Assembly (NCBI GenBank): GCA_044892525.1 | Contig: CM097885.1 | Span: forward strand, 28,522,001 to 28,586,000 | Length of the DNA stretch: 64,000 nucleotides | Reading direction: 5' to 3' | DNA from: Schmidtea polychroa | Taxonomy: Eukaryota | Shown here: piece after piece, positions 18,535 to 63,398 of the stretch | How the letters are laid out: every line of letters begins with the position of its first letter | Numbering within the stretch: position 1 is the first letter of the stretch | The notes under the pieces: generated by a model | Databases searched by the model: none | What the model was told of the DNA's origin: nothing | What the model saw: only the letters and a program-made list of their open reading frames with translations | Made by a program: the position numbers and the translations under genes

Positions 18535-18536
18535 TA

Positions 18537-18670
<134 letters not shown>

Positions 18671-18836
18671 AATAATTATAATAATAATAATGTTAGGGAT
18701 AGGCCTGGGGCCTTGATTGTAAAATAAATAAAGAATTACTATATTTAGAAATGGTATAAATAAAATAATAAAGAATTACCGAAAATAAAATATTAGAGTT
18801 AAATAATTACTATAATTAGAATTAAGTAGTATATAG

Positions 18837-23316: not shown

Positions 23317-23665
23317 AATATTAATAATAATAATATTAATAATAATTATTGTGAGGAGTTAAAATTAAAATACTAAATTAAATTAGTTCATGATTAAAAT
23401 TTGTAAAATTTTAATTGAAACTTAAATTATTTTAAGATATTAAAATTGAAATGATAATTGAAATTTTAAAATAAAATAATTTTTAATAAAATTGAAATTC
23501 AAGTATGAATGCGATGGTATGTTGATATTTGGTTGAAATTAAAATTTAGAAAATGTCCCAAGAATATTTGTTTATATAATCAGATTTAATGAAATATAAT
23601 TTTGGATTTAATAGTCTTAGTAATTTATTTTAATGACAGAAGAATTAAATGTTATAGCTTCTAAC

Positions 23666-24751
23666 ATGGCGACCATTCCAACGGATCTGCTTATTGGAAG
23701 ATTACTTCCAGAAAAATTCCACAGAGGAGAGGACCTCGAATTATTTATCAAAGAATGTCAGAGGTTCTTTGAAATAACGAAGACACCAGTGAAGACCCAA
23801 ATGGTACTAGTTATTACACTTCTGGACAGGACTTTGATTGAAGAATATGAAACCGCAGAAGGTAAAACCGTTGAACAGAAATTAAGAGCAGCTTTTCATC
23901 AACCAACGTCATTGATTGATGACTTAAGAGAAGCCTTGAACTACAAGCAAGGTAACGAATCAGCGGAAATATTTATAGAGAAAATATCAAAAATGACTAA
24001 AAAATTGGCCTCACACACTTGGAATAAGGAAGAAATTCAGAAATGTTTATTGACACATTGTGTAAAAGATAAAGAAGTCAGGAAAGAAATCGAAATGAAA
24101 GATCTCAAAACGGCGGAACAAATTAAAGAAACTATAAAGAAGATAGAAAAAGTTAAAAAGGTTATTGAACAAGTAAACACGGTGAGATCAATACGACCTA
24201 CAACTGGGGGGAGAACTTATAGAGATGTAGTACAAGTTGGAGCCACGAAGAGAAAAATCAACGAATGGAAACCAGAGACAAGAATTAAAGTGATAGAATG
24301 CTGGACGTGTCAAAAACCGGGACACAGTAGCAGAGAATGTAATATAAAAAGAAGATTTCAATGTTATGCATGTGGTGTTGAAGGTCACATACGAAGAGAA
24401 TGCCCAACAATCAAATGTCATAGATGCAATGCACGAGGACACAAAGAAAGAGAGTGCTACACAAATATGGAAAGACGAAATCAAGGAAGAGATCGAGACC
24501 AAAGGAAGATGTCAGGAGGAAGAATTCAAAGAAATACCTATCAACAAAGGGAAGATATGTATCAATCAAGGAACGTACATCAAAGACAATGGGGAAACCA
24601 ACAATATAACAGAAAAGATATTGCAGCTATCGAGTCTGATGATGAGATGATGAATACAAAACAGTCAAGCCAGCCAGGCGAGTATAACAGGGAGAATGAC
24701 CCAAACGAGCACGCTCCGTCAAACGGGACATTGATCGGAGCAATTTACTAA
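23666..24751 (+). CDS. gag: Gag with three CCHC zinc knuckles
   Basis: CWTCQKPGHSSREC, CYACGVEGHIRREC, CHRCNARGHKEREC. Start taken at MATIP at the LTR/PBS junction. Confidence 0.88.
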   Translation: MATIPTDLLIGRLLPEKFHRGEDLELFIKECQRFFEITKTPVKTQMVLVITLLDRTLIEEYETAEGKTVEQKLRAAFHQPTSLIDDLREALNYKQGNESAEIFIEKISKMTKKLASHTWNKEEIQKCLLTHCVKDKEVRKEIEMKDLKTAEQIKETIKKIEKVKKVIEQVNTVRSIRPTTGGRTYRDVVQVGATKRKINEWKPETRIKVIECWTCQKPGHSSRECNIKRRFQCYACGVEGHIRRECPTIKCHRCNARGHKERECYTNMERRNQGRDRDQRKMSGGRIQRNTYQQREDMYQSRNVHQRQWGNQQYNRKDIAAIESDDEMMNTKQSSQPGEYNRENDPNEHAPSNGTLIGAIY

Positions 24752-27700: not shown

Positions 27701-28119
27701 GGAAAAACTGGGCTGATATAGTGCCAGAAATAGAATATACCTTGAATGCAACAGTTCAAAAAACAACGGGAGTAAGCCCAGCAGAGATTATATTTGGGAG
27801 GAAAATCGACAGAATGAAATGGTACTCGAATAAAGAAATAAATAGAGAAGATATGGAAAAGAGAATAGAGGATAAAACACTAAAACCAAAAATAAGCAAA
27901 ACAGTGAGAGATTTTGAAATGGAAGATTTGGTTTTGATCAAACAAGAAATTCGAAATAAAGACGATGCAAGGTGGGAAGGGCTGTACAAAGTGATAAAGA
28001 AAATACATGAACGGAGCTACTTACTTAAAGATCAAAATGGGAAGATGGTAGTCAGAAATGTTGAGAAGATCAAACATTTTAAAAAAGGGGGATGTGAGGA
28101 GTTAAAATTAAAATACTAA
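24706..28119 (+). pseudogene. pol: Pol (protease, RT, RNase H, integrase) with one nonsense codon at 26365
   Basis: LLDTGA, YLDDILIF, TDAS, HHCC, IIDHYSK, GIIERQFRT. ORFs 24775-26367 and 26452-28119 share a frame (YY*RFI). Confidence 0.92.
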
Positions 28120-28408
28120 ATCAAATTAGTTCATGATTAAAATTTGTAAAATTTTAATTGAAACTTAAATTATTTTAAGATATTAAAATTGAAATGATAA
28201 TTGAAATTTTAAAATAAAATAATTTTTAATAAAATTGAAATTCAAGTATGAATGCGATGGTATGTTGATATTTGGTTGAAATTAAAATTTAGAAAATGTC
28301 CCAAGAATATTTGTTTATATAATCAGATTTAATGAAATATAATTTTGGATTTAATAGCCTTAGTAATTTATTTTGATGACAGAAGAATTAAATGTTATAG
28401 CTTCTAAC

Positions 28409-28500
<92 letters not shown>

Positions 28501-31500
28501 AAATGCAGTGTTCATCCAATACACGTGCAAGTTATAACAAAGACATGACCTTAAATAGTTAAGTATTAACGTTTATTATTATACAAGTTTTCATTACAAA
28601 GAATTGTATAATAATGAATGATAATAATATCAAAATATCGACATTGCGATATTTGATTTATTATTATTTTTTATATGTTAATGAATTAATTTTTAAAAAT
28701 TAATTTATAATTTTTTTTTATCAGGTTCTTTTTTCCCAAGATATTGCATGTCGTCAATCGGTCATGGTATTTCATGCTATAAAAACATGAAAAAATATTA
28801 CATGCATAAATTTAATGGCATCAACTTTTTTATATGCCCCATATGCAAAACCTCCCAGAGCGTTAGATATAAAGAATTTTTTAAAGAACATTCAAATCAT
28901 TTAAAATCTTTTAAAGTAAATATAAAAGACCTATTTAGGGAAATTAATAAAAATAACTGTGATATTTTAAATATTATACAAAATAAAACATCAAAAAATA
29001 AAAGACCTGCTGAAAATAAAGAAAATAATATACCTAATAAAATTATTAAAAAGGAAGTCATCGAAATCAGTGATGATGATGACTCTATAAATATTGTAAA
29101 TAATGAAATTATACCTATTATAAATAATGAAATTATATCTATTATAAATAACGAAAATAATGAAATTATACCTATTATAAATAATGTAGATATTATAAAT
29201 AATGATTTGATTCAATTTGGAGGTTCTTCCTTAGAGAATGAACCCTTAATCACAATAAATTTAAATGGCGCTATCAAGACTTTACGTTTTGATGTATCAG
29301 ATGCGCAATTAATTAAAATAATTTTAACAGATAAAATCAAAACTATATTAATAAAAGAAATTTATAAAATGGGGAGCGTCAAAATTCAATTTGCGATATT
29401 AATTAGATTTGAAAAAGATGGTGAAATCCGTGACAATTACTTTTCTAATAATGCAACGACATTTTCTGATGACTTTTTAAAGGAAGGGGTTCATAAGCTA
29501 AATGAAAAAATAGAACAATTTACCTATTTTGGCAGTGGATGGCGCGTTATCAACATTCTTGAGATACATTTATTATCACTAAATATGAAACAATTAGTCG
29601 CTTGGCAGGACATCAATATATTAAAACCCCTTCTGAATTGAAAAATAAGAAAGCTATACTAAACATCAAAAATAGCGACGATAAATGCTTTCTGTATTCC
29701 ATTCTTTACTTATTAAAGAAAGATCAAATAGGTGAAAATCCTCAAAGAGTATCTAAATATACTGAATTTTTGAGTGAATTAAAATATGACGAAGTCACGG
29801 ATTGTCCCATGAAATTAATCAACATTCCTAAATTTGAAAAGAAAAACATAAATTTAAAATTAGCCATTAATGTGCTTTCATACACTCCAACTATAATAAT
29901 TGATGACGATGAAACCCCTGATAATTATGTCTTTCACCATCCTCATTTAAGTCTTATCCATCGATCTAAGGTCACTGACGGAAACCCAATTTATTTGTTA
30001 TTATTAGAAAATAAGGATCGATATCATTATACTGCTGTGACCAATATCAATAGACTAATGAACTGTCATCGGAACCCGGACTGTAACGTTCAAATAAGAT
30101 GTCAATGGTACCCACACTGTCTTAACAGGTTCCGATTAGATAACGCGTTTAATATTCATGTCGCATTATGTGCCAAAAATCAGACAGGTACAACCCTTTA
30201 CACTTTGCCCTCAAATAAAAATCTCGAATTTCAAAATTTTTCAAAAACAATAACACCACCATTTGTAATTTATGCCGATTTTGAGTCGGTTTTACCCCCT
30301 GATGTTCGTCATCATCAAATTCATATGCCTAGTTCAGCAGGCCTTTTATTAATAAATAATTATAAAAATACTAAACAATATTTTGAATTTTATGGCCTTG
30401 ACTGTATTACTGATTTTCTTAAAAAAGTTGAGGAAATTGCTACTACTGTTGTGATACCGTATTATGATATGGAAGGTAATAAGTTGATAGGACCGATGTC
30501 TTTCATTGAGGAACGTCAGTTTAAATCTTGTCGAAATTGCTACTTATGTAAAAAACCTATAGTAAATCCGGTAAGAGACCACTGTCATTTCTCTGGTAAA
30601 TATCTAGGGGCATCTTGCCGAAAATGTAATGTTGCTCGTCGAATTTATCATCTACTACCTATTGTCTTTTATAATTTACGAGGTTATGACCTCCACCATA
30701 TTTTAAAACACGGTCTCAATGGCTTTCCATCTTGGGACTTGAACATAATTCCTACCTCAACCGAAAAATTTATTTCGTTAATTGTACATATTAATAAATT
30801 GGCTGTGAGATTTATAGATTCTATGCAATTTGTTAATTGCTCTTTAGCTAAGGCTGTGAAAACACTAACTTCTCTTCCTTTAACTTCGTCTGTCTTTCAA
30901 GGTACTATAGTTGACTGTAAAGGTATTTTTCCGTATGATTTTGCTACCTCGTTTGATGTTCCTGAGACTACATATGAACTACCTCTTATTTGGTCTGGTG
31001 TTAGCGAAGATGAGTACGCTAAGGCACAACTAATCTGGACGCAGCAAAACTTTATAAATTTGCGTGACTATATGTTAACCTACCTCAAACTCGATGTATT
31101 CCTACTCGCTGATTACTTTCAACAATTCCGGGCCAATGCCATTGCATATAATGGATTGGAACCTTTAAATTTCTATGGAATTCCCGGTATGTCATGGTCC
31201 TCAGCGCTTATGACATTAACGGAACCCATAGAACTTTTACAGAACATGGAAATGTTCAATTTTTACGAGGGAGGAATACGGGGTGGGTTAACATTTGTTA
31301 ACAAACATTACACGGCTGCTTCAGATGATACAGAATTATTGTATATTGATATAAATAATCTGTATGGTTGGGCTCTTAGCCAAAGTCTTCCCTATGGTGA
31401 TTTTACTTGGGTGTATGATGGCTTGAATGAAGTTTTGGATGAGTGTGTGAATGTTGCAAATATCGAAACACTTCCATATGGATATACTATGGAAGTTGAT

Positions 31501-32878
31501 ATCGAGATTCCGATTGATTTCCATGATTTTTCAAATGACTTTCCGATTGGACCTGAAAAGATGTGCCCACCTAACTCAAAAGTTGAGAAGCTAATGCTCA
31601 CGCATTATCCAAAGAAGAACTATGTTCTTCATTGGAGGCTTCTCAGGCTTTATCTTTCACTTGGGGCTAAGGTTGTAAATATACACAGAGCTATAAAATA
31701 TAAACAAAATCATATCTTTAAACATTATATCGATAAAAACACTAACTTGCGTGCTAATGCAGTTAGTGAAATATATAGAGATTTATTTAAATTATATAAT
31801 AATAGCCTGTACGGTAAATCCGTAGAGAACCTTAAAAAGAGGATGAATTTGCGACTATGTAATTCATCTGAAAAATTAATTACATATTCGTCAAAACCGG
31901 CATTCAGAAAAACAATTGAAATAGTAGATGATATGTTTGCCGCGCATCTCAATAAGGACTCTATATGTTTGGATAGACCCAGCTACATCGGACAATCAGT
32001 AGTGGATCTATCCAAACTACGGATGTATCAGTTACAGAATATAGAGCTACAACGATATCGGGATATTTATAATTGTGAAATTAATTTAGTAGCGGGTGAT
32101 ATCGACTCTTTCTTTTTAGAGGTTAAAAATTTAAAATTAGATATATTATTACAAGCGATGATTTCGGATGACCTTTTAGATACTTCAAATTACGATCCCT
32201 CTCATCCTTTATATTCCAGGCGACTTGACTCAGTTATAGGCAAGTTTAAGGATGAGAGTAAAGGGTTAGGATATAGTGAATGGGTTTTCTTACGTCCTAA
32301 ATGTTACAGCCTATTAGGAAATAAGTCAACAATGAGGGCTAAGGGCGTAAAATTACCGGGGACCGACATCAAACATCAATCTTATTTAGACTGCTATAAC
32401 AACAACACAGTCATGTCGGTTCCTCAAACTAGAATAGGAACCCGGAATCATCAGCTGTTTACTTTTAAAAACTCAAAAATAGCTTTAAATAATCACGACT
32501 ATAAGAGAGCTTGGGTAGGGAAAAACTCAAGTTTTGCATATGGACATTATAGAGGGGTCGATGTCTTAGATGGTAGTGGTAATATCATTATGCCTGAAAC
32601 GGATCCTGTCATTCGAGATCAACAATTCAATCAAATATTCAACTCAATAATTTAAAGTTATAATTTGGGCCAATTATTTAACATTGTGATTATGTATATA
32701 TTTGTGTAAATACGATGTTGAATAAAAATTTGTAAATATGATGGCGAATAAAAAATTTGTAAATATTTAGTTATTTTTGTTTGTAAACTTTTTATGGTAT
32801 AACTTTTGTGTTATAAATTTTATAATAATCGACTATGTTTTTAGTTAACAATGATTTGTGATAGAAAGTTGAAATTAT

Positions 32879-35823: not shown

Positions 35824-36106
35824 ATAGACAGTCTAATTTCCCAACAATCAACAATCCAAGTCCATGCAACCCAATTCAATCCAAAAACAATCCAGAAAAA
35901 TCTTTCAATTGACAATTTGTGTAAATATTATTGATCAAACATTATCCTCGAACTAGCTAACAATCTGTGCATATTTTATCCTTTATTATTATTCTGGTTA
36001 ATTTCTGTCTGATTATTTATGTATGCAGCACCAGCGCTAGAGTTTCAGATGATGTATTGCAATTTTGTATCGTACTTGCCTGTTAAATTTAATGTAGCTG
36101 TTAGAC

Positions 36107-36462
36107 CAGTGTTTCTCAAACAGTGTGCCGCCAATTGAGTCAAGTGTGCCGCGAATTGTTTTTCCCAAAAAAGTTAGTAATAAAATAAATTTACAAAAAC
36201 TATATCAAGCTTTTTACTATGAAAAAGTCTCTGATGTGGAATTTCCCAAAGAATACACAAAAATAAAAATTTATTTACAAAGAACTATTAATTTTTTTTA
36301 ATTTTGTACTTTTATTAAAATTAAAAATCTCTCGTAATCATATTTAATTAGTATAGACTAAAAATTAGCTTTTTTATATATCATTGGAAAATCAAAAAAT
36401 TTGTAAAAAATTTTAAATTTTGGGCAGATGTGCCGCGAGCGAGAAAAGTCTGAGAAACACTG
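36107..36462. mobile_element. hAT-type MITE (duplicate of 13440-13795)
   Basis: Same TIRs; mirror copy within the right arm. Confidence 0.7.
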
Positions 36463-38391
36463 TATTAAATATTTTCTATGGGGTCTGTGAGTCCTCATAA
36501 AATATGCCACCATCAAAATACAAATTGACATCGAAATTTTGTGATATAAGCTTTCACATTAGTATCATCCGATAAATGACAGAAAACATGAAAAGTTATA
36601 AAGTTTCAGCTTTGTGAAACTGTTCTTACAAGCACAGTAGGACTTTAGAGAGGGTTGGGGTCTGACAAACCTCAAAATTTATGCTAACCATTAACCACAT
36701 GAAGAAGCCTTGAAAAGATATAAATGGTTTAGTTTTTTAAAAATGAATGATCAACTAAACACCATAGAAGTACGACAATTCATTAAAACTAACCAAAAAT
36801 ATAAACTGAAATGTAATACATGATATGTTACTTTCAAGTTTATCTTCTAACGTATTTAATATATTGTAGCCATCTATTATACTGAACTTTTATTCAACAA
36901 GCAAATAAACATATCTAAACATTTTTAAATAACGGTTAAGAATTTAAAGTCAGACTAAAGTTCAAATGATTAATTTGGAATGAATCTATGAACAAAAAAT
37001 ATATATATTAATTAGTTTTTTTGAAAAACATTAAATTGTATTTTTAAAAAATTATATGAAATGAATAGAATTTATATGAAATTTGTTATATAAATGCTTT
37101 GTTTATATCAAGGCTTGATTTTACAGTTTTCAATATTACTAATTATCATTATGGTTTTACGTAAGTTTCAATTTACCATACACGATGAAAGTTTAGATAT
37201 TCACATTGAGGATGTATTAATTTTTTTTGCTTAATTTGATGCTCTTATTTTCTTTAGACTAACTTAAATAAACACGGATGCCATAATGCAATGAAGTATT
37301 AGCCACTTATTTAATTAAAAATTACAATTTAATTAAAAACAAAACTATATTAGAAGTATATTGATTATCATGATTTTCCTAAATTATAAAAAAATAGTTA
37401 GGTTCTGGAACAGGACTTAGTGGAATATTGTGCTCTAAATTAAATGCACCTATAGTGTATCTCACAGACTTAAATGACGAAGTGAAAATTGTATAAGAAA
37501 TAATATCAACCAATATAAAATATTTCCTATTTCATGGGGGAATTTATTTCACGAAAATTTGTTTTCAATCAATAATTTAGATCTTATTATCGCGTAAGAT
37601 TGTCTATTTGATAAATCAGGTAGGAAAATTTTTGTGATACTTTATGAAAATAAATCGTATTTAGTTTTTGAAAGTTTTTTTTATTACCGTGGCTTTTTTT
37701 TCTTCGAAAACATCCAAATGCTATTCTGCTTACAACATTTGAAATTAGATGGTAATTAATTGCATTTTGTTAGTAAATTTCTATTTAAAATTTTAATCAA
37801 TATTTATTTTACTGCAAGATTTTAAATGTCCGAAATAATCAGTGAAATTGTTTTTATAAATTTATAATTAATTATTTTTATATATACATTTGAATTATCC
37901 GAATAAGATTTTGTTTTAAATTTTTATTTATTAACATTATTATTAGAATAATTCTTATCATCAGAATAATTATTTTTCAATTGCGTTTGATAAAGTTTTG
38001 CGCAATTGATTAAAAAATTGAACAAATTTTAATCGATTATTATTCACGTTTACTGCGTGCTAATGCACGCTCGCAACTCAAAGGATACGTTGATTGTAAC
38101 TCATAATTAACAAATGATACAAAATTTTTATAATATAGCACTTGAACCAAACACTAATTGTCCTGTGATTTACAACATTTTATTAATAGATTTAAATCCA
38201 TGTTATAATTTAAAAAAATTTTTAAAATGAACCCATGCAATTGTAAAAAAAAATCAACAAATTGTAATTTCAATTTTTACAATTAATAGCTAAATTACTT
38301 TGTTTAAATTATTCCAAATATTGTGTTTTAATATTTTGAATTATCAACATTTATTTCTATAAGTTTTTTAAAAATATTATTCAAACGTACT

Positions 38392-41300
38392 ATGTTACCG
38401 AAAAGTAAAGGCACATCAGTGCCATCCGATTCAGAAGCTAAAGAAGAGTAAAAAATTTATCCATTGACATTGATTTTTATTATTGCAACAGATTAGCATG
38501 TCATGTTTATGAATATCTAATACATATTGGTGCAACTAAATCTGCACAAACATTTTTACAAGAAGTTATTATTCGTTCATAAAAAAATAGTTTTAAATTC
38601 AAAATTAATTTTAGATGCGTTGGGAAAAACCACGGCAAATTGGTGAATCTCCAGGATTTTTAAATGAATGGTGGTGGTGAGCATCATTTTATTTCAATCA
38701 ATAATTTTAAATGATTACATTTTAGTGTCTTTTATGATTTATACACCGCGCCCGAAGAAAGACTAAACTTAGAGCCACCCTTTGAGCATTCAAGTGAATC
38801 TAAAGCATTTCATGATTATGTATGTAGAATTTGATTATAAGGGATATTATTGATTCGATTTTTGATAAACAGGGATTTGGTAATTCTGGATATCCAAATG
38901 GATCACCAAGAGTGAGTTGAATGTTAATTTTTATACGATTTTTCTAAACATTGGAATTTATACAATTATAATTGTCAAATAAATTGTTACTATATATGAT
39001 AATTATTAGTGTATTGCTTTAACGCAAGTCAACTAAATTGTTATTTGTATCCTATTACTCTAAAACGCGTGTGTCATCAGCAACTGACTTTAAATTAACG
39101 GCTTTTCCTCATTGAATGCATGCGCATCATTGTAGTGTTGTTTTTTTAATTGAAAACACTGAAACGATTATAATTTCCTTAACTTGTTTGTTTTAAATTT
39201 TGAATTTAAATTTTTTAGCTGTCAGTGGATCTCACTTGTTATTTTCCCCATATAAATCATTTATATCTATCCAGTGGATTTAATTGGATAAAATTGTAAT
39301 TTGGTTTTTATTTTCTCTCTTTCGGGTTATTTTCTATAATAAAATTCCATCGACAGCTGGTGATTAATTATAACCGATTTTTTTGCTCGCAGTTAGAAAT
39401 TATTTTTATTGAAATATTTTTTCATACACCGAATGCGAAACTTGTGTGACAGTGCCAATAAGATTTGGTTATTTCTTACATTTGTTGTAAATTAATTCGC
39501 CATAGGAGATTATAAGGCATTCAAATTGATCTCTTTCACAATTGCCTCCAAAATCTAAATCGAAGGATATTTTAAAGAACTCTATTGACCAGATAGGCGG
39601 GTTTCATACACCGAATGCGGAACCTATATGAAAGAGAAGATAAAATATTTTGTCCGCTTGTATAATAATTTGATTAAACTTTATTTTTATGTTTTCAAAA
39701 AAATATGTAACAGGAAGTTGACGATAATATCGATTTATAACACAAATTTTAAAGATTATAAATTCTACACGAGTTTCTAAACTAATTTATTTGTAGAATC
39801 CATCAATACCCATTCCAATGAGCTGTGGAATGCCGCCTACTGGCGGAAGGCCTCCGTCATCACAAGGTATAATACCACCAGATAATAATATTCATACTCC
39901 AGTATCTATCCAAGGTGGTCCGATGCTAGTTCCAGGAAGCTCATTTTTCCCTGTTAGTGTTTTTGATATTTATAATCACAATATACAATCAAACTATAAT
40001 CACGAATTCATTATGAATCAATATCATTCTAAATTTATCCAAAGGAAATTATTTGCAATTATAGACAAATCAGGAAATTAGCAATTATATATGACAAATT
40101 CATTGTTAGAGGCGCTTTAACATTATTTGCTCTGCTACATTTAGGTCATAATGTATATCTGGTGTACAGTTTGAAATATGAGGCCTAGATATCATATCTC
40201 AGCGCTAAATATGATTTTCGGATACCTAGAGGGATAAACTGAAATACAATTAAGAAGTATAAATAGTGAAATAATAAATCTTTAATTTAAAATCATTTTT
40301 ATTCATAACAAACTTAAAAATGCAAAAGATCTTCAACAAAAAGCAATTTACAAATGCTTATTATCTAATCTCTTGATTCATGATATGAGAATTAAGGAAT
40401 TATATTAAACTAAAATATTTTCTTTCTTGCCTTTGCTTGTGCAAAGTCACTGAGGACATTCTCGAATGAGACTGAGGGAACATAATTTATCTTAAGTCTT
40501 TGTTCTAAATTCAGAAGCTGTCGAAATTTATCAGTAACCTCGGTTGTCATAGTTATAGCTAAACAAACCCTATGCGCTTTGTTCTTCGAATTGAGTCGAT
40601 ATTACAATTTCTCATTGGGACACTTTTTGGGGCCCTAGGCTATAGCCTGTGTAACCTATACATAAATCCTGCACTGTTGATGTATTATAATGTATAATTG
40701 GATCAAATTTACTATTGAAATTACTGAACATTTTTGTCCGGTCAAAAGTCTGAATGCTTAAGATATAAAACATATGCTATTAAAAGGTTATTTGAAAATT
40801 TTCTCTTAATTTGTTCACGTATAAAATAATTGTAAATTTCATAATCTTATCAGCTACTAGTCCGAATACCCGCCCAATTCACATTTTCACGTTTTTAATT
40901 TCGTTTATTGTTTTAATTTGCATTGTTAAATTTTTAAGATGTACAATTTTCAGGGACCGCAAATAAAATTTATTTTGACCAAAAAAAAGATTAATCACGC
41001 AACAATGTCTTTAAGTTTAAAATGAATTAAATGATTTAAAAAATAATCAAATGTAAAAATTATAATTTTTATGAATTTAGCGAACTTTTGTTTTAATTTA
41101 TAATCAATTAAAGTTTTTGTTGATATTCATATACTTATGTTTTTATTTATAAAATTTGGTTTTCAATGAAAACTGGTATAAACGTTTTCTTTTTGTTTTT
41201 CGATCCTTTCTGAACATATTCTAATGAATCCTTTCTCGTCATGATCTTATCTTTTGGTGGTACTGCAATGCGACGTTTAATTTGATTGTTAAACAAAAAT

Positions 41301-43741
41301 TTGAAACAATAAATTTATAGCCTGGTTATCCTATGCCTAACATCAGTGGACAGCCTATAGATCTAATGAGGAACACAAGTGTTCCTTATTCAAATCCATT
41401 TTCACAAGGTCCGTTAATGCCTAATTATCATCCTGCGGGGGCAATGCCTAGACATAGGTTTATGGGAAATCCAGCTTCTTCACTTGGAATAGTTCATAGT
41501 CCAGGTCCTTCTGGAACTCCCCAAGCAGGTCCTCAGATAATGGCTAGTCCCAAAGATAGTTTACAAAATGAGTTACAGCAAAACAATCCTGGTCAAGATC
41601 CATTTGGACCCAATGGTTCATCTAGGAGCCCATCTCATGTAATTTCTCAACCTGCTCCAGCATTTCCTCCACCACCAGCTTCACAGAGCAATTCAGATCA
41701 ACAAAATCTATCTGGTATGTTGAATGGTCGAAACGGTGGACCACAAATGCCTCAGTTCTCACAACATCAGTCTCATACTATGGAATATATGCCGTCTTCA
41801 GGAATGAATTTCGAGCCGCCAGTCTCAATGAAGCATTCACCCCAGTTACATAATCCAAATATGGAAGCCATTGCAACTATGGGAAATAATATCGCCGATT
41901 ATTGCAACCCGATGCCTCCAAACGGTCCTTCATTTTCAGAGCATGCAATGAGAGTTAGTCAGTCATCAGTATCAATGGGTGTTCAGCCTATTTCACAGCT
42001 CCATATGATGCATCAAGGAATCGGTTCACATCATGCATCGCTGAATATGCAATCCATGCCAAGAGGACCGTCCAATTCTGCACAGTTTATATCTCAACAA
42101 GGAGGTTCTGTTAATGCCAGTCCTCAACAAGGAGGTTCTGTTAACGCTAGTCCTCAATTCCCAGTAAGTTTTCACTATAAATTTCCTGTTAATTTCTAAT
42201 TGTCAATCTAGCATCATTGGTAAAACTTATTCTAATGATTGTTTATCATTAGTATCTATAAAATAAAATTTATGCTATTAAATCGTGTTTTTATAGGTGT
42301 TTTTATCATTTTTATTTATTAATATCGATATTTTAATCTGTGGTGTATTATTGATATGCATTTCGAACATTTCCTGTTTCAACCAATCGAATGCCTTCAG
42401 TGGAATTATTTACCCAGTGCTCAGTGCCTGTGTTTACTGCATTATTTTAAAGAAACTTTAAGAAGTTTGCACCTATTGTTGCGATTCAATAATTATTTTC
42501 CACTGCTATTATTTGTCCAAATATTTCCAGGAAATTATGAAGAAGGAATATTTTCAGAATATATATTAAGCTTGGAAACGAATTTAAATGAGAGAGGCAT
42601 TCATATATAATGCCACTTGAAACAACTGCAAAAAATACGAGCAGTTATTAAAAAGCACAATACGTTGCCAGAATTGATATAGCGCAATTTTGAAGTAATT
42701 GATAAGTTATAAAAAAATTCACTAGAGCTAGCTGTGTAGTTTCACAGTTGATAAACCCTATCAATTTTGATAATTTGTCGCGGCACACAGGTTGGGAAAC
42801 ACTGCTGTATATACAGTCGTGCCCGCTTAAATCGGATTTGATAGGAATGTCACAATTCATACGACTTATAAAAATCGTATAAAAATCGATTGTTTTTGCC
42901 GTATTATTTGTTGATCGTTGATTTAATATAGAACTTTTCATTTCATTGCTATGATAATAGTTTATATCAATACTGGAACTTAAACAATACTGGAATATAA
43001 AAAAGGAATATAAAAAAACAACAAAGTCCATAATTGATTAAATTTACTCACTTCATCTACGAATGAGGACAAAAGAAAAGATTGTTTTAGGTGAATGGTT
43101 AACTTCCAATATCGCAGGTACCGGCAATTGATCAATTTCGTCTTCCAATTCATTCCTATTGTTATCTTCTGTTTATTTATTAAAACAAACTAATTATCAA
43201 ATTAATAATTACAATTAATAATACCATTACAACTGGCTGTGAATGTGTACAAAAAAATCAATAAGGCGGGCTCGACTGTATCAGAGAGGGGAGGCGGAAT
43301 AATAAAATTATTATTGTTTTAAATTTTTTGCGTGTATATTGAAGTATAATTTTTTGATTTTACAATGACTTTTATTTTTGAAGCTTATCCATTTCCTGGA
43401 GTTTTCCTGGAACCTATCTACCGCTTAAATACGCATAATAGGGATTTTTTTTAATTCACAAAAAGTTTATTGATAAATATTCAATTTAGGCTCTAAACAA
43501 ACATATTTAAGATAAATAATGTAGTAATTTACTTTAAATTAATTTTTATCCACAGCACGAAAATGTAACAATCGAGATTTATATCAATATTTTCTATATC
43601 TGTAAGTGTATTTATTTGCTAGCTATGTTGAGCAGATGTTATTATTATTATTATTATTACTGCTATTATTATTATTATCATTATTATTGCGTTATTACCT
43701 TTCAGGATTACGGATTCACATCGATGTCACAAGCTATCTGA
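38392..43741 (+). CDS. SSBP3: SSBP2/3/4 (SSDP) family gene, copy 2. Exons 38392-38447, 38492-38564, 38615-38676, 38726-38819, 38873-38911, 39797-39952, 41321-42163, 43706-43741
   Basis: Mirror of copy 1 with intact splice sites and frame; one visible amino-acid difference (HPVG vs HPAG in exon 7). Confidence 0.9.
42814..43278. mobile_element. Tc1/mariner-pogo-type non-autonomous element (duplicate of 6985-7449)
   Basis: TA-CAGTCGTGCCCGC...GCGGGCTCGACTG-TA. Confidence 0.75.
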
Positions 43742-46700
43742 CAAAACTATGAGTGAGTGAGTGAGTGAGTAGACGCGCGTGCACATCAGTTGAGGCCAGC
43801 GTTAAACTGTATAGTGTTACATAAAATATAAATTGTATATAATCATGCAGTACAGTTGGATCAATAAATGTGTAGACTTTTATATATATGAATTTCGTTT
43901 TTTTGTGTAGACTTATTTTCATTAAATGTGAATAATAATATAATTTTTTATATTAATTATGACTAAATAATTAATAATTGTTTTTTTTTGGGTTTTTTTA
44001 AAAATATTTTCTCATTGTTGAAACTGTTTAATAATGACATGAAATTTACTCGAATCATTTCTGATAGAGGATCATTTTCATTTTCTATGCAGTATTTATT
44101 AGTTGCGATATAGATTATGAAGCTTTTTTACGGTGAAGTTATTATCGCAGTTTTTGAATTATACAAAATGGATGTATTGAAGAAATAAATTTATTTAATC
44201 TTATACTGATTGGCTTTTCGTATGCCATGTGATGGTACAAACTTTGACATTATTTGCAAAAAATATTTTATAAATTTTAATTAGACTTAATCAATACATT
44301 AAAAATGTATTTGTGTGTGAAATTTTTATTAAAATATGTTAAAAATTATAAAAGATATTAAATATTTAAAAAAATAATTTTTCAATGTTTTTGTTTAGCA
44401 AAAATTGAATAGTATTTAGGAAAACCAGTCAGCACTCAAATGGTTAAATATTCACCGCAGTTAATGAAGGTGTTAAGAATGATAATTAACTGAAACAATG
44501 GTCATGTTATTAATACGCGTGCTATAGGGATTCGTTAACTTATTTGTGGTGTATTCCAAAGGCTCCAAATTGAATCTCCAAATTCTTATAGTGGTCGTCA
44601 GTTGACATCTTTTCCCTATCAGCACTTATTGATTCTCTTGTGACCATTCATTTTTTAAGTTTCCTCTATTTTTGTAACATAAGGGAGGTACACTTATTTG
44701 TAGTTGTTCGAAAACAGAGGTAAGCAGCGGTTGCAGACCGATTTGGATAAGTTAGTCCCCAGTTTGATAGTTAAATCCAGAATTATATACTTTTGGAATG
44801 GTCAGATCAGTGACATTGTTCAACAGAGCCTATGAAAGTGGTTCCCCCTGTTTCACCTAAAAACAAAAATGAAGGTGATTGATTATGGTTATGTAAGTCT
44901 GCCAGCTTTAGTGAAATCAGACTCTTCAGTAGATATAAAATAAAATTAACTATTCTTTTCAATATTCTTTCCAAAACAAATATGGACTTTTACAATAATG
45001 GACTTTCACTAATTAATTTCAGATCCATTTATTCACATAGATCAAAATTGGGAGTACATACGATTTCTGTCTCAAGTTCGAACAAAACTAGAGCTCATTC
45101 CCTTAACATAGACAGATTCATAATACTAATAGGAAAGATGAATGCAGTAATGTCGCCAATAGCGTAATTTTTGTTATTACAGTTGACCTTAGGGGTGTGC
45201 CATTTTATTTTTAAAGGTGTTCGGGGTACTTATAGATGTTGAATCGACTCCTTCCTAAACACCTTCATGATTATTGTGCTTATACCATCTGTGTACCCAT
45301 GAAAGTTTCTAGAAAGTCTTACGTCATTATCTATTCTAGTGTTACATTATCGTTGTCTTAATTTACCTGTGGTCCTCATTCTGGATGTTTTCTAATGTTA
45401 ATTCAAATGTTTTACGCAGGGATCCGCTCTTATTTTTCTGTTAGTAGATGTTGCTCTGTGTTTTCTGTAATATTTGTGAATATGTAAATTATCCTTAAAA
45501 AAATTTTAAAAACCATTAGCTAACAAATCACAATCATTTTTGTTGTTAAAAAATGTTGCTCCATACTTTCCATAATATTAAAATTATTCTGAAATTTCAA
45601 TCAGTATTTATACTGATTTTGACTGTGCATCCATGCATTTTCTGCCATTAGATACAATCAGAATGCAATAACATTTGAATTACTTTTGTATGCATGCATG
45701 ATTGTGTGTAATTATTTATTTTTAATTTAATTGGTTTAATTATTTAATTTAATTTTTATTAATTTCAACAATTTAATTTTGTTCATTTTATAATTTAAAT
45801 AATGTTAACTAATTTTATTTTAATTATTAGTATTTTTAACAATTTAATTTTATAATCTACTTAATTCCAACTAATTTTATTTTAATTTTCATTATTCCAT
45901 CAGTTCTACTGAAGTTTCTTTTGTTTCAATTTTTAAATGTATTTATTTCTTTATTTTATTTCATTTACTTTTTAAATAAATTTTTCCTGCTCCTTTTCAT
46001 AAAGTAAGCACTCATTGTCATAGCTCCTTCTTATGTAAATCCGAGCCATAACATCCCTAATTATTTCAATTATGGTCCTTTGTATGTCAATATGACCATT
46101 AATCCTTCTTAAAATTTCTTTTCATATTATTAATTAATTTATTATCAATTATTTTATTTATTATTTTTTTATTTTCTAGTTGCGATATTTCTCTTAACTG
46201 TGTTGGTGATTGTAACTTTTTGCGTTTCTTGATTTTATTATACATGTTTTATTTATTCTAAATGTGTTTTGTACTTTATTTTGTATTATTTGGTGTATAA
46301 TCATGAATTTTAATGCAACTTGGTTTGGTTTTTATGTTATGTATTTTCGATTCATGAAAACAAACTCTCAATCGGTTCTAGCCCAACATTATCATTAGCT
46401 AACAAATCACAATCATTTTTGTTATTAATTGTATTTTTACCATTTTATTTAACGATAATATATTTAAATTTGTATTTAACTGCTATTATTATTTCATTAT
46501 TATCTTTATTATTCTGATGAGGTATCAGTGAAATGTGACATTTACAATTATTGATGACTCCATATCGTACCTGGTATACAATAATGAAAAATTCCAGACA
46601 ATATGAACTTTTATTGGCTAGTACAATTAATTAACAATTTACGACAAAACATGATTCAGTATTGCAACCGAAGTAATTGAGTGCTTATTACAACTCTTCT

Positions 46701-55672: not shown

Positions 55673-58198
55673 TCATCGAAAATAATCATGTCCAAAATAA
55701 TTATCATCTGCTGGATCATGGAAATCATCTGTATCATCTGCTGAGATAGCTTCCGTTGAATCTATAAATATATCGGTGTCACCGCCCCTATAATGGCCAT
55801 ATGCCAAACTTTGATTTTTATCCACCCAATTTCGCTTATCATCTCTACATGTCAAGGCTCTTTTATTATTTTTAATACTAAAAAGTTGGTGATTTTTTGA
55901 CGTTATTCTAAACTGAGGGACTGTGTATATTTTATCATTTAAATAACAATCTAGATACGACTGATGTGTTAGTCCAGTATCTTTCATACTTATCCCCTTA
56001 GCCTACATACTTTTCTCAACACCCATCAAACTGTAACATTTAGGTCTCAAGAACACCCAATCTTTATATAATAACCCTTTATTCTCGTCTTTGAATTTAC
56101 CAATGACAGAATCAAGGTTCCTACTATATAAAGGATGATTTGGGTCATAATTCGAAGTATCTAATAATTGATCTCTAATCATCGCAGGTAAAAGAATGTC
56201 AAGACTACAATGTTTAATTTCCAAGAAGAAGGAATCTGTGTCTCCAGCAACGATATTAATTTCGCAGTTGAATTCGTCGCGATATTTTTGCAACTCTTCA
56301 TACTGCAGCTGGTACATCCTGAGTTTGGATAAATCAAGTACGGTTTGACCAATGTAACTAGGTCTATTCAAACACACTATGTCCTTCCTCAATAAAACCG
56401 AAATCAAGTCATCATCGATTTTCGTGGATTTACGAAAAGTCGGTTTCGAACAGAATGTTAATAATCTCTGTGAAGAATTACACAGACGTAAATTAATACG
56501 TTTTTTAAGATTTTCAACAGTCTTGCCGTAAAGACTGTTGTTTAATAATTTATAGAAATTTTTATCGAGTTTATTTGTCGACGCTGCTCGTAACGCCGTA
56601 TTTGTGTTAATATAATTTTTGAAAATTTTATCTTGTTTAAATTTAATTGCTCTATGTGTTTTTGATATTTTAACACCTAATTTAATAAATATTTGTAGAA
56701 GCCTCCAATGAAGAACATAGTTCCTCTTAGGGCTGTGTGTAAGCAACAGCTTCTCTATTTTCGAACCCGGTACACACATCTTTTCAGCGGCAACGGGAAG
56801 ATCGTCCAGTTTGTCGTGAATTGACGTCGATATTTCTAAATCCACTTCTATGGTATAACCATAATCAAGCAGATCTAAATCTACCGTTGTGCATTCAACA
56901 ATTATATTATTTAATAAATTATCATCAGTAACCCATTCAAAGTCACTGCAAGGTAATGGTTGACTTAAAGCCCAACCGTATAAATTATTTATATCTATGT
57001 AAAGCAAAGCGGTATCCGGGTCTGTTTTTACATAATGTTTATTTACAAAAGTTAGTCCGCCACGGATACCGCCCTCGAAAAAGTTATACATCTCCATATC
57101 GGTGAGGAGCTCAATTGGAGAGTTTAAAGTTAATAAGGCTGAATTCCAAGACATACCTGGAATCCCTAAGAAATTTAATGGCTCTAGTCGGTTATGAGCA
57201 ATGGACTTAGCTCTAAATTGCTGGAAAAAATCGGCTAAAAGGAAAACATCAAGTTTTAAATAAACCATCATGTAATCGAAAAGTGAAGTACATGAAGTTT
57301 CAACCCAAATTCGCTGAGCTGTCTCATATTCAGCGGGAGTCACATCTTTCCAAATAGGAGGTAACTGACGAGTGTTATGTAAAAACTCTAATGAAGTTGC
57401 GGCATCATAAGGAAAAATCCCCTTTGCAGTTATTATGGTACCCTGAAATTCTGATTCGGTCAAGGGTAAAGATGATAAAGTTTTGACAGCATTATTTAAA
57501 GACTCGCTGACAAATTGATAAGAGTCTATAAATTTAACAGTTAATGAGTCAATCCTAGCAAAAAGACTAAGGAATTTCTCGCTGGTTAAAGGAATACAAC
57601 TAATATTCCATGAATGATATTTTGAAAGGCCAAATTTCAAGATATGATGCAGATCATAACCCTTTAAATTATGAAATACTACAGGAAGGGTATGTCTAAT
57701 TTGCCTCGACAGATTACAAGTTGTACAAGCGGCACCGAGATATAGACCGGTAAAATGATCATGGTCCTTAACTGGACTAACTAAAGGCTTATTGCACAAA
57801 TAGCATGATGTGCTGTTTTCAAACATTAATTGTTGCTCATCTGTAATTATCATTTTCTTTTGATAATTTTTATAATAATAAGGAGTTACAATATATTTCC
57901 CTATCATTTCAATTTCAGTAAGAAATTGATCGACACAATCTAAACCGGTGAACGACTTATAAATTTTTACGCCCGTAAAATTATTAATAAAAAGCATACC
58001 GGCAGAAATAGGCAGATGACGTTGAAAGTAGCGAGTGTCATTAGGTAAGATAGCCTCAAAGTCAGCGTAAATAACAAAGGGAGGAGTGACTGTTTTACTC
58101 CAATCAGTAAATTCTAAATATTTATTTTTAGGCAATGTGTACAAGGTAGTACCAAGCTGATTTTTATCGCAAAGACCCTTATGTCTATTAAAAGACAA
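55673..58198 (-). pseudogene. pPolB, 5'-truncated, nonsense codon at 56003
   Basis: YADFE, DHDH, FIDS, YIDINNLYGWA, KLLNNSLYGK, GDTDS, LRPKCY. ORFs 56003-58198 and 55673-55987 are in frame across a TAG. Confidence 0.92.
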
Positions 58199-58204
58199 TT
58201 AAAT

Positions 58205-59322
58205 TTCCGTAAATTTCCGTTTTGTGGTAGTTGACTCTGATTTAAATCAAAATCGGGAGCTAAAACAAATGTGAAAAATGGATATTTGCTTTTAAATTCT
58301 TCTAGAGTTATTCCACAATTCAAGTTTTTATCTAAGTAACCCAGATTTCTAACAATACTCTGCATATATGTCGCACAGTAATTATCGCTTTGGAAATCTT
58401 GAGTATATGTTTCTCTATAATCAGTATTTTTCGACAAAGTCAATGAAGTAACACCAAAACTTTTGAAAATTGAGCTGGAAGCAGTATAAGATCCATTATA
58501 TTGCGTTTCACTTTGAAATGTTACCAGAATAAAATTAGGCATTCTTCTGTCACCAAATATTTGTTCTTTATAGAATGATGAAGCACCTTTAGCAATAGCA
58601 AATTGTACAATTTCCTTTGTTTTTAAAGGATAAATTGCATGTTTTGAATTAAGACCCAATTGATGACCAGCTAATACTGACGGGTCTACTCGAACTCTTC
58701 TCACCAATAATTTTGCATCAACTAATTGACATATTGGTGCACCAGTTGCACTAGTAAGAGATAATGCAGAATCGGACCTTTTCAATCTAATGTGTACATT
58801 AACACCTGGTAGCAAATATTTCGGTTGATCCATAAAATCAAGTTGTAATGATGAGCACATAGTGAATGATTTTGAGCCTTTAACCCACTTTTTTCTTTCA
58901 TCATCTGTTGCTGCATAACCCATAGGTGTAAGACAGGTATTTTTAGTATCGGAATTGTAATTTAAAATAGTTTCTATCAAAGCCTTGTGAATGAATGTAT
59001 TATTTCCGCCCTCAATCTTGATATTATTAAATCCCAACACTGCATCTTTAAACAGAGTATGAAACATGAAATTGTTTGGTAATACATCCGCATTGGCATC
59101 TAAAACTTTTCTATCTTTATCTACAACCTTGATCTGAACAGTCAATGAAGTATCGTTCAAATCTAAATATTCAGTTTGCGAACCATTAATATAAAACTCA
59201 ATATCATTTCTACTATCAGTAATCGAATTCATAGGAAAAACTTCCTCAAAGGCCCCAAATTCTATTACAGCCTGGGGCGATGGTCTATCAAATATACATA
59301 ATTCGGATTTACCACAAATCAT
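58205..59322 (-). pseudogene. Polinton major capsid protein, 3'-truncated by a deletion joining it to pPolB
   Basis: KSELCIF..IEFYING..EYLDLNDT..Q.KYLLPGV.V.I.L.R typical of Polinton MCP; departs from the 16054-16740 copy after QNGNLR. Confidence 0.9.
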
Positions 59323-59681
59323 TTTGCAAATATAGTTCCATGTCCTTTCATTCGTTTGTTTATACGTGATATTCCATGTCCTTTACGTTTTGCAGCTGGG
59401 ACTGGGGGCTCATCTTTTTGAAACATACCAGCAACTCCAGGCAGAACCTTACCTAACTCAGTTAAAGCATTTGTTTTTAGGGATGGTAATATTTTCTGTT
59501 CATTCATAATCACATCTTTTGCAGTTTTCATACCAAAACTACCAATACGTTTAAGAATAGGAAGTGCAAATCTCCCAATTGTTCTCTACCAACCTGATCC
59601 GTACTGTTTACCAATAAAATATGGTAATTCACCGCCAGATTGGCTATCACTATACATACTAATAATATCGGAATTAGCCAT
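59319..59681 (-). pseudogene. Small Polinton virion protein (Gly-rich protease sites plus amphipathic helix), internal stop at 59586
   Basis: SQSGGELPYFIGKQYGSGW*RTIGRFALPILKRIG; lies between minor and major capsid genes. Confidence 0.7.
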
Positions 59682-60732
59682 CTACTTTACGAAAATGTAG
59701 TGTCAAATGAGTTTTTGATTCTTTTGGGAAGTTTATAAGTTTTCCACTATCGTCACGAATATTTATTTCTATATTGTTTATACATGAGCTTGAAATTGGT
59801 AAATTATCTATATTTATATTGACAACTTCATCATGTTCATATTTTCCAATCCACACCGATTTCAATTGAGGAACACTGGAATCACCAACAATTATAGGCT
59901 CAATAATATTAGTATATATGAACATTTGTTGATGATGTTCAAGTATTCTTGGTTTACGTATACCAGCCGATTTTTCCCGATATTGCTGCTTCTCTAATCC
60001 AAGTGTATTTGTCAAATTTTTATCAAATGTAACTTCGCAAATATCATCATTCAAACTGAATGTAAATAACAAATCTTTCACAATGTCCAAACTTTTAAAT
60101 ATGTGTGAACAATTGTACTTTAAATATTTAAGTAACACATCAAGTTTATCAATATATAATTCATCAGCAAAGGTGAATGATTCTTCAACTTCATTATTAT
60201 ACGACACTGATATTTTGATTTCTTCTCTCATTACAGTGTTTGCTTCAAATAGATTAAAGCGTAATAAATATTCTGTTTCCATAATTTCATTTTTCAACTT
60301 ATTGCAACCCAATCGTTTGGCATCTTCAATATATTGGAATGTTATTGTAAATGGTTTAAAATCACAACTGATATTTAATCCATCCTTGTAAAACATAGAG
60401 CAATGCGGATCTAATATTTGATTCGGAATATGATATGTTTTATCATAATTACTGATAATAAAGATACCACTACATGTTTTCATAGCATTCCTTTTGAAAT
60501 CAATCTTACATTGACCATAAAATGGGAATGTATTGTACACGAATGTAAAATCTTGCAGTGCAACTTCCCAGTCACCATTTAAAGAAATCGGATTCTGGAG
60601 ATTGACCATGAATTTACTGGCTTGATTATCTGGATGAATAAGCGGGCAACTATTGCTTGGTAAAATAGTATAAAAATTCACTTTACTAGATCCTTTTCTG
60701 ATATCCATGATGGGTTTTGATAACCATGCCAT
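59674..60732 (-). CDS. Polinton minor capsid protein (penton, single jelly-roll)
   Basis: FYTILPSNS..PDN..S.F.V.L..PI.L.GDWEVAL N-terminus; FIYTNIIEP.IVGD..VP.L..IEINIRD..G..LTLHFRK C-terminus. True start may be near 60681. Confidence 0.85.
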   Translation of the reverse strand: MAWLSKPIMDIRKGSSKVNFYTILPSNSCPLIHPDNQASKFMVNLQNPISLNGDWEVALQDFTFVYNTFPFYGQCKIDFKRNAMKTCSGIFIISNYDKTYHIPNQILDPHCSMFYKDGLNISCDFKPFTITFQYIEDAKRLGCNKLKNEIMETEYLLRFNLFEANTVMREEIKISVSYNNEVEESFTFADELYIDKLDVLLKYLKYNCSHIFKSLDIVKDLLFTFSLNDDICEVTFDKNLTNTLGLEKQQYREKSAGIRKPRILEHHQQMFIYTNIIEPIIVGDSSVPQLKSVWIGKYEHDEVVNINIDNLPISSSCINNIEINIRDDSGKLINFPKESKTHLTLHFRKVDG

Positions 60733-61307
60733 TTGACATAGTATTGTTTATCCTTGCCGACCTTTTTAGTTTTCAATATCTTTTGAATTCTAAATACTTT
60801 TGGAGGAGGAATAACTTGTAATTCTTGCTCATAAAATTTTCCTTGTACAATATTGTTATCATTGTCTTTGATGACATACATTACAGGATTCTGTTTAGTA
60901 TTTATTTTTGAAATTACAAAGACTTCATCACTCCAATTCGTATCGAAATTTTTAATAAATGGTGATGCACTAATTTTACTAATTCTAACATGGTCACCTA
61001 CTTTATATTTCGGTTTTGTAATTTTTACAGGTTTTTTAGAATAGATTGTTTTTGAAGTGATATCAATCGGTCTTAATCCATTCAGTCCTCGATGTGATGA
61101 ATTATTATAACTGGTTATTATTTTTGGTAAAACCAGTACCCATTTTTTATTACTTTGATGCACGAATAATTTCTTTAATCTATCTCTCAATGTTCGGTTA
61201 AATCTTTCAACATGAGCAGCTTTGTATTGAGAATGTACTGAGTAATGGTCTATTTTCAATTTATTGAGGATTTGCTTGACTTTACTGTTGTAGAATTCTT
61301 TACCTAA

Positions 61308-61369
<62 letters not shown>

Positions 61370-61757
61370 CTAAATCCGTTTGCAAGTTATTAGGATGTCC
61401 ATCTTTAAATAAATCATTAACAGCTTTAGACATTTCATCTGCAGATTTTGCCTTGACGGGTATTGCTCGGGCAAACCGACTGAATACATCAATACATGTT
61501 AAAATATATTTATACCCATTGTTAATTTTCGAATAGGGTATCATCTCCATCAAATCCATTTGCCATAAATCATTTATTCCATATGTTTTATATACTCTTG
61601 TTGGGAATCGTTTCTGCATTGGTTTGTTCAAACTGTATGCAAGCTGGTCTGATAACCACTTCTGGGTTTCTTTTTTCGAATTCGGAACTCTTTTGTTTAA
61701 TTTTGCCACTCCACCGAAACCGGCTTCGTCTTCGGGGTTCGTCCAAATCTTCTCCAT
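60678..61757 (-). CDS. Retroviral-type (rve) integrase with C-terminal chromodomain-like segment; intron 61304-61369
   Basis: WQMDL, CIDVFSRFA, QTDLG^KEF, VERFNRTL, YVKWHGY..SWI. Confidence 0.92.
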
Positions 61758-61818
61758 TACAACAAGAAGATTTAATATTAAATTTAATGTCTGGTAATGA
61801 AGGATTAGCACTCATTTT

Positions 61819-62326: not shown

Positions 62327-62957
62327 TCAAATTTGTTTTGAACTTTGTTTATAAACCATGGCACCTTTTGGGTTGAAAATATCTGTTTTTACCCGTATAT
62401 CATCAGGACATTGTTGTGTGAAATCGAGAAATATATACCCATGAGGTACTTTCGTAGCATCTTGAAATGGATTGATAAGAAAATTACGGTTATTACGGTC
62501 GTCCAAGAAAATCAATGACAGTTGCATCTCTAGGATTCTTGAAAATAACTAGATATTGTACATTTAAATTACGTGTTCGATGTGCCCCACCTTGATGAAA
62601 TAGATTTTGTGTTATGAAAATAACTGTTACACCAACATGTTTGCTGATTGTTGTGAATAAATTATTAAAATCCTTTTATTTATTGGCTTCTTGATACAAA
62701 TCATCGATAATGATGACATCATCTTTCTTCAAACGACTTGACCAGTTTTTATCAAAACCCTTTACTATTTTCATGTTTTTCAATTGACAGAAACTTGATT
62801 GTGTCAATCCATGTTCTTCATCGGCGCCCCTATGCCAATAAATATTGTTGAATTTTGTTTTGAACAAATTAGATTTTAGTAATTTACAAACAAATAATGT
62901 TTTTCCACTACCACTCGGACCAACGATTTGGTATACTGCATCATTTCGTAATTCCAT
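62327..62957 (-). pseudogene. A32/FtsK-like packaging ATPase, two frameshifts
   Basis: Walker A GPSGSGKT, Walker B IIIDDL, then ITQNLF..RT..LN..Y.VIFKNPRD and PHGYIFLDF. Confidence 0.9.
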
Positions 62958-63060
62958 TTTTTAAATTTAAACTATATAATTATTGTTTATATTGATAATT
63001 TAAATGAACTCCTTTTAAAATAACTATATATAACAGAGTTTTTATAATTATTTCATTAAA

Positions 63061-63293
63061 ATGCTTTCAAATATAAATTACAGGGCAAAAGCTGATGTAT
63101 CAAAAATGATATTTCCAATGAGGAAACCACAACAACTCATCAATAGAAGTAAAAAATATCCAATAATATATTTCAAAACTGGTAAATGTAGAATTATGGG
63201 GTGTAAGGAAATAATCAAAGCTAGTGAATATAATGTTTATGATTTAGAAATACAATCGATAACCGTAACTTCCGATATAGGTTTTTCTTGTAA
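63061..63293 (+). CDS. TATA-binding-protein-like ORF, truncated after the first repeat
   Basis: LSNINYRA..IIYFKTGKCRIMGCK..EIQSITVTSDIGF resembles TBP motifs LQNIVST..LIFxSGKxVxTGAK..KIQNMVGSCDVKF. Confidence 0.6.
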
Positions 63294-63398
63294 TTGTTGG
63301 ATGACAGAGGAAGAAGAATCGAAGAGTTTGAATTAACACATTACTATAGAACGGGCAGCAACAAGTTCAGAATCAATATATACGTGGAGCCCAGATAA
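63294..63398 (+). pseudogene. C-terminal fragment of family C protein
   Basis: LLDDRGRRIEEFELTHYYRTGSNKFRINIYVEPR* aligns with the end of 35446-35823. Confidence 0.6.

Follow-up and report, generated by a model that had tools for sequence, protein, structure and literature searches.

The window analysed here, i.e. the whole 64-kb stretch of DNA, contains toward its end an element that, judged by its gene content, is a Polinton/Maverick, because it combines a retroviral-type integrase, a family B polymerase, a gene with a Walker A motif and other syntenic genes. The gene order around the integrase is conserved with relatives, and the element extends to the window's end. The integrase gene is divided by a short interruption, which is the subject of this work. 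The genes are as follows:

55790..58198, minus strand: protein-primed family B DNA polymerase (DNA_pol_B_2, 102 bits)
58165..59322, minus strand: conserved neighbour gene whose end is missing
59674..60684, minus strand: conserved neighbour gene, an open frame conserved in relatives, with no Pfam match
60678..61303, minus strand: integrase, part after the interruption, with the Glu codon at 61206-61208 and a C-terminal chromodomain
61370..61757, minus strand: integrase, part before the interruption, with the ATG at 61755-61757, the first Asp codon at 61554-61556 and the second Asp codon at 61374-61376
62336..62957, minus strand: putative packaging-type ATPase with the Walker A motif GPSGSGKT
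63040..63300, plus strand: start of a small divergent gene, matching only the first 84-96 of the relatives' 145-149 residues

None of the capsid-like frames matched a Pfam family, and the ATPase and capsid names are provisional ones drawn from syntenic conservation and the Walker A motif. From its place in the gene order, the gene at 59674..60684 is presumably the minor capsid protein, and the gene at 58165..59322 is probably the major capsid protein.

The window copy is decaying: its ATPase is disrupted twice, by a stop codon in frame at 62676-62678 and by a change of frame near 62495, its capsid-like gene at 58165..59322 is cut, and its small divergent gene is only partial. In nine full-length relatives of 403-419 residues, the matches to the cut gene end at residue 368-401, and a second capsid-like fragment at 15982-16740 retains the end that is missing here. 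At 58114-58210 the capsid-like gene, its end lost, runs into the middle of the polymerase, which could reflect a deletion within the element or the joining of two elements. The polymerase itself is without the N-terminal part that the copy at 29563-32655 has. The family is present in very large numbers: one sequencing run alone contributed 39,216 contig records aligned over 3.75 kb, and at least 98% of its depth disagrees with the window sequence at 9 of the 40 positions listed. None of the 24 sequencing runs listed is on record as RNA; in the four that were aligned, all made up of contigs and with the ATT repeat skipped, no listed joint concerns the interruption.

The integrase frame matches the Pfam rve family with an E-value of 1.4e-7 (32.2 bits, slightly below the cut-off of 32.6), and its C-terminal part matches Chromo with an E-value of 2.6e-4, below the curated cut-off. 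A family profile built from 25 members matches 24 solved integrase sequences, and the QTD motif, whose Asp is encoded at 61374-61376, aligns to the TD of "LQTDNG" in 4pa1, a solved retroviral integrase core. We take this residue to be the second Asp of the DDE triad. The window integrase departs from the family at 2 of 121 conserved columns (median 3 in 55 whole relatives). The 64-kb window contains no second integrase of the same family, and the protein collection searched does not hold the window's own integrase protein.

The interruption and its direct repeat

Four features describe the interruption:

61304..61369, minus strand: candidate phase-1 GT..AG spliceosomal intron of 66 nt with no in-frame stop (from the sequence, a branch-point scan and a count of registers)
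61308..61367, minus strand: pure (ATT)20 microsatellite filling the candidate intron (sequence and TRF)
61367..61374, minus strand: 8-bp direct repeat, upstream copy, consisting of the exon end TTTAG and the donor GTA
61301..61308, minus strand: 8-bp direct repeat, downstream copy, consisting of the acceptor TTTAG and the exon start GTA

An earlier note on this DNA, made by reading the letters, had described a GT-(ATT)n-AG stretch of 66 nt flanked by a direct repeat, and both the sequence and TRF confirm it at 61304-61369. On the minus strand the stretch consists of GT, 20 perfect ATT units and TTAG; TRF calls the array at 61308-61368 with period 3, 20.3 copies and 100% matches. The repeat that bounds it reads TACCTAAA on the plus strand and TTTAGGTA on the minus strand. 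An open frame (60678-61811, minus strand) spans the stretch and, when translated through, gives G-I20-L-G, which is the unspliced poly-isoleucine reading that the note had described. The note had also placed the interruption at the second Asp of the triad. It does lie beside that Asp, but within the Gly codon two residues past the Asp codon at 61374-61376, in phase 1, in the motif D-x-G-K-E-F.

Because of the direct repeat, the 66-nt stretch can be placed in nine equivalent registers, of which one has GT at its 5' end and AG, with a T-rich tract, at its 3' end. The GT..AG ends and the direct repeat are therefore a single piece of evidence rather than two. The donor TAG|GTATTA fits five of the nine positions of the consensus and is weak. 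Neither YTRAY nor YTNAY occurs within the 66 nt as a branch-point word; these are generic words that may differ from the consensus of the host.

Of the 13 AAT/ATT arrays in the window, the one at 61304-61369 alone is bounded by a direct repeat that does not itself look like repeat sequence; the other 12 have neither a comparable duplication nor comparable ends. The purity of the repeat may be an artefact of assembly. When the obligatory AG|GT is subtracted from the 8-bp repeat, what remains is TTT and A. A is common at donor position +3, and TTT precedes 48 of the 434 pyrimidine-rich AG sites in the window. Because AG|GT is obligatory and the other four letters are common, the repeat is only mild evidence for a duplication, and the origin by duplication that the note had proposed for it gains little from these letters.

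Relatives with and without the interruption

The comparison with related integrases that the note had recommended gave a divided answer: most relatives are uninterrupted, and a few near ones are broken at the same codon. The best 120 of 1,575 full-length protein matches all read D-x-G-x-E-F without an insert, in a search that by its nature cannot return split genes. At the DNA level, where the seeds were placed downstream of the interruption site, a metagenome scan yielded 38 loci, none of them with a split integrase; 33 cover the motif and are uninterrupted, and five stop short of it. Both loci from a genome collection cover the motif and are uninterrupted as well, giving 35 of 35. Among the viral contigs, no relative was found using the C-half or P0128 as the query, the family alignment as query gave one weak chromodomain match, and a search with the motif for the interrupted site gave no matches. 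Two integrase genes of Polinton type, L040 and L041, lie in two bacterial metagenome-assembled genomes, probably through binning contamination.

In 10 of the 35 uninterrupted loci, several of which are near-duplicates, AG|GT is already spelled at the same codon, in five of them with letters identical to those of the window. The site is therefore a natural proto-splice site, as the note had supposed, and the interruption is derived. Uninterrupted relatives include some at the same distance as the split ones described below, namely P0075 (78%) and P0242, P0003 and P0006 (76%).

The split relatives come from searches for short proteins, which returned 119 and 36 matches that were then clustered, and which favoured fragments of 30-226 residues. 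The closest one, P0248, is 91% identical to the N-terminal half of the window integrase; it leaves the family sequence at the same codon and continues INIIIFIIELKGFTMIL. This tail is rich in isoleucine but impure (INIIIFII...), and it has the same final IL as the window's read-through. The break in P0248 might be a contig edge or a mis-join at a repeat. P0128 (77% identical to the window) and P0247 (74% to the window and 94% to P0128) both terminate in G-K-I-I-I, and P0129 (76% to the window) terminates in G-N, an end that could be made by a point variant and a nonsense codon. In all three, a stop follows one to four codons past the interruption codon. Whole C-terminal halves, P0125 and P0126, are found on contigs of length 3759 and 1550, the same as for the contigs of P0128 and P0129, so that P0128 with P0125 and P0129 with P0126 are presumably halves on the same contigs.

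These ends are concentrated at the interruption site. The N-half is matched at 65% identity or more by 62 proteins, of which 44 extend to the C-terminus. The other 18 stop early, six of them at residues 129-131, where the interruption lies. When independent clusters are counted, the share is 4 of 16 (rough Poisson p 7e-5), or 3 of 15 with P0131 omitted (p 1e-3); the uniform null is approximate, since the searches are biased towards certain lengths. For 298 proteins below 65% identity, the bin of residues 130-139 (18 ends) lies within the range of nearby bins (11-20 ends). P0131, which ends in QTDL, was rejected as a split relative: it is sister to the whole protein P0008 and departs from the family at 5 of 43 conserved columns, so that its early end is probably explained by decay or the end of a contig. 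It was left out of the split group before the one-clade test described below. P0155 (51%) ends at QTDLGK and is ambiguous.

Distant proteins that diverge from the family at the motif were not counted as support for an intron, because eight of the ten looked up are spider gene models, most of which connect other Polinton genes to this donor-like site. In Trichonephila models (P0307, P0309, P0317, P0320, P0322, P0338 and P0376), the N-half of the integrase is joined at QTDA to parts of other genes, most of which resemble other Polinton genes. Probably these joins reflect the use of the same donor-like site by a gene predictor, and they pollute the databases. Another anomalous protein, P0124, has an N-half identical to that of P0248, but in it the same Gly is followed at once by the integrase's final 14 residues. 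A deletion in the DNA from one GGT triplet to another may have produced it, as may a join made in assembly or the splicing of a copy without most of its second exon.

The halves of the split relatives were also compared with each other. P0128 and P0129 are sisters in the tree of N-halves (99/95), and P0125 and P0126 are sisters in the tree of C-halves (100/96). P0128 and P0129 differ at 1 of 43 conserved columns versus 24 of 85 variable ones (p 2.6e-4), and P0125 and P0126 at 1 of 53 versus 33 of 109 (p 7e-6). By this measure of sequence change, both halves of the split relatives have diverged under purifying selection. Two genes that are split at one codon, with both halves constrained, are most simply explained by an inherited intron that is spliced out. 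At the protein level, the position of the interruption is common to relatives whose flanking coding sequence is constrained. The window and P0248 differ at 2 of 43 conserved versus 9 of 85 variable columns (p 0.33), which gives no signal of constraint.

The trees place the window clade and the P0128/P0129 clade together in 21% of bootstrap replicates. A single origin of the split forms, evaluated on 30 selected rows, costs 0.01 log units (AU p 0.43) and is neither shown nor rejected.

Interpretation of the interruption

On balance, we favour as the probable explanation an inherited, lineage-specific phase-1 spliceosomal intron at AG|GT, the interior of which slippage has purified to (ATT)20 in a decayed copy, leaving a stop-free poly-isoleucine reading that is accidental. 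The intron would have been gained at the ready-made proto-splice site once this lineage had separated from most relatives, and inherited thereafter; that it is specific to a lineage follows from the uninterrupted state of most relatives. A sub-lineage of Polinton/Maverick elements would accordingly carry a short GT-AG intron in the Gly codon of the integrase, which the host spliceosome would remove in working copies. In the decaying window copy, replication slippage would have turned an AT-rich, ATT-seeded interior into the pure repeat and, by chance, would have left a stop-free length divisible by three. We infer the introns of the relatives from the ends of their proteins; splicing and the direction of the repeat change are also inferred. 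The genome is rich in AAT arrays, and two related stretches that follow the window's polymerase genes differ sharply in them. Most likely, the pure repeat is a feature of one decaying copy. Since its donor is weak and a branch-point word is absent, splicing of the window copy is doubtful and may have been lost.

The element's integrase intron is thus probably neither newborn nor a switch, the two proposals by which the earlier note had explained it. The stretch is probably an intron, and one confined to a lineage. Its reading as a snapshot of gain is not supported, since relatives at 91% and at 74-77% identity break at the same codon; the note itself had held that a non-repetitive intron at this position in distant relatives would mark an old intron, and near relatives with impure tails approach this situation at the protein level.

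Parallel recent gains at a hot spot, a widened form of the note's model, are the best of the alternatives, and we regard them as unlikely. Here, a staggered break would have duplicated the 8-mer containing AG|GT and been filled with ATT units, while the P0128/P0129 clade gained a separate intron; the pure repeat would be ancestral, and P0248 would be an eroded form. The start of the P0248 tail does resemble a worn ATT repeat, the trees leave the two split clades unjoined, and the site is donor-like enough for spider gene models to join other Polinton genes there. A model for such gains is provided by the new introns of Daphnia pulex: the perfect 8-bp repeat falls within their range of 4-12 bp, and 43 of 90 gains there were parallel (PMC4202315). 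However, four of the 8 bp are the obligatory AG|GT, and the repeat adds just four common letters to them. A new intron of the Daphnia type should also be absent from the closest relatives, whereas P0248, the closest relative (91%) that reaches the site, is interrupted there. Assuming a single origin leaves the likelihood essentially unchanged (0.01 log units), and a 60-nt repeat that is 100% pure is unlikely to be as old as a protein divergence of 9%, unless slippage purifies it again. It is possible that the duplication model of the note holds for an older event or for one of two parallel gains.

A bolder form of this idea, which we consider doubtful, makes the AG|GT in the D-x-G-K codons a hot spot where introns have been born repeatedly, each time by a duplication of the site that microsatellite units then fill. 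The window copy would be near the original state and its 91% sibling worn, and active elements would depend on host splicing of an intron in an active-site loop, so that weak splicing would limit integration. If this were true, the many copies in one genome would make the birth and ageing of introns readable as a time series.

It is also rather doubtful that the stretch is a one-off insertion, never spliced, in a dead copy. The source would be either a truncated retroelement ending in (TAA)n or the repair of a break with repeat fill, the 8 bp would be a target duplication, and the breaks in relatives would be due to coincidence, decay or assembly error. An exact duplication around a pure repeat would be expected, the copy is decayed and differs from nearly all of the family's depth at 9 of 40 listed positions, the donor is weak with no branch-point word, and all 120 full-length proteins and all 35 DNA loci compared are uninterrupted. 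However, AGGT lies inside 10 of 1000 8-mers of the gene flanks, which is the chance that a random 8-bp duplication would contain it and which counts against a blind insertion: such an event would need a 1-in-100 landing. It would further need a chance pile-up of breaks at one codon, with two relatives under purifying selection among them. Such a duplication is missing from the other 12 arrays. The window also yielded no parent element, and its reverse-transcriptase match (18 frames scanned) belongs to an LTR element.

Regulated intron retention, through which the note had suggested that splicing could act as a switch of integrase activity, is very improbable. A spliced, active integrase and a retained, inactive product would set the time of integration. 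The site lies beside a catalytic Asp, so that retention should inactivate the enzyme, the donor appears weak, and the intron of the window copy is divisible by three and stop-free, so that a retained transcript would presumably escape nonsense decay. However, a retained intron in any coding domain inactivates the product, and P0128, P0247 and P0129 run into a stop rather than a poly-isoleucine tract. Relatives do not share the stop-free state divisible by three, so poly-isoleucine is not conserved as a product, and a switch is left without support. The window copy is also decayed, with its broken ATPase and cut capsid-like gene. Finally, an 8-bp footprint of a hAT-type transposon was considered for the repeat and rejected: no terminal repeat is left, and the breaks in the relatives would be unexplained.

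Comparison with known systems and other features of the window

The core genes of intact vertebrate Mavericks and of a Caenorhabditis Maverick are described as intronless (PMC8097293; bioRxiv 10.1101/2022.07.12.499685), and adintoviruses have an rve integrase with a predicted chromodomain (PMC8502044). The window element resembles the Polintons of vertebrates and Caenorhabditis and the adintoviruses in its rve integrase with a chromodomain, its protein-primed PolB, its putative ATPase with a Walker A motif and a gene order conserved with relatives. Unlike the vertebrate and Caenorhabditis Polintons, it has an integrase interrupted by a GT..AG stretch at a position common to near relatives. The absence of introns from core genes, which is a descriptive trait of vertebrate and nematode Polintons, thus does not extend to this element, and its membership is unaffected.

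The new introns of Daphnia pulex (PMC4202315) are likewise short, AT-rich and GT..AG, with a direct repeat of 4-12 bp shared with the adjacent exon, and parallel gains are common there. They are confirmed by cDNA, lie in host genes and contain in-frame stops in about 93% of cases. In contrast, the 66-nt stretch has a pure microsatellite for its interior, belongs to a viral gene and occupies a site common to relatives at 74-91% protein identity. In dinoflagellates, introners occur within maverick-polinton-like elements (PMC11957031), so that introns within Polinton-like elements have a parallel. Introners are multi-copy transposons, whereas the 66-nt stretch is a simple repeat alone and the other 12 arrays are without such ends. 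Ginger1 offers a further likeness: its Gypsy-like integrase/transposase genes have one to four introns, mostly GT-AG and at conserved positions (PMC2836005). Ginger1 elements are cut-and-paste transposons with neither polymerase nor capsid, unlike the window element. Neither an intron at this motif nor a Polinton intron filled by a microsatellite came to light in the literature searched, which included few subscription papers.

Since animal Polinton core genes are described as intronless, gene callers that are blind to introns cut such integrases in two, and a spliced lineage would thereby be easily missed or dismissed as dead. A real intron would mean that integrase production in these elements depends on transcription in the nucleus and on the spliceosome of the host. 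A family with very many copies would also be a practical site for measuring how short introns change by slippage, and for distinguishing one origin from two.

Several other features of the window were observed. A Gypsy-type LTR element at 23350-28409, with LTRs of 317 bp that are 99% identical, is bordered immediately at either end by AAT repeats, as though it had gone into (AAT)n. At 5163-13845 and 36057-45185 the window carries two copies, inverted relative to each other, of an 8.7-kb stretch that includes a Pro/Gln-rich frame; its two parts are 96% and 99.95% identical between the copies. At 28711-28724, where the frame upstream of the second polymerase begins, a T-tract ends in AG and is followed by GT; it is possibly an acceptor. 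A hAT-type transposase at 19020-20930 is split by one stop and adjoined by a 61-unit AAT array at 18494-18676.
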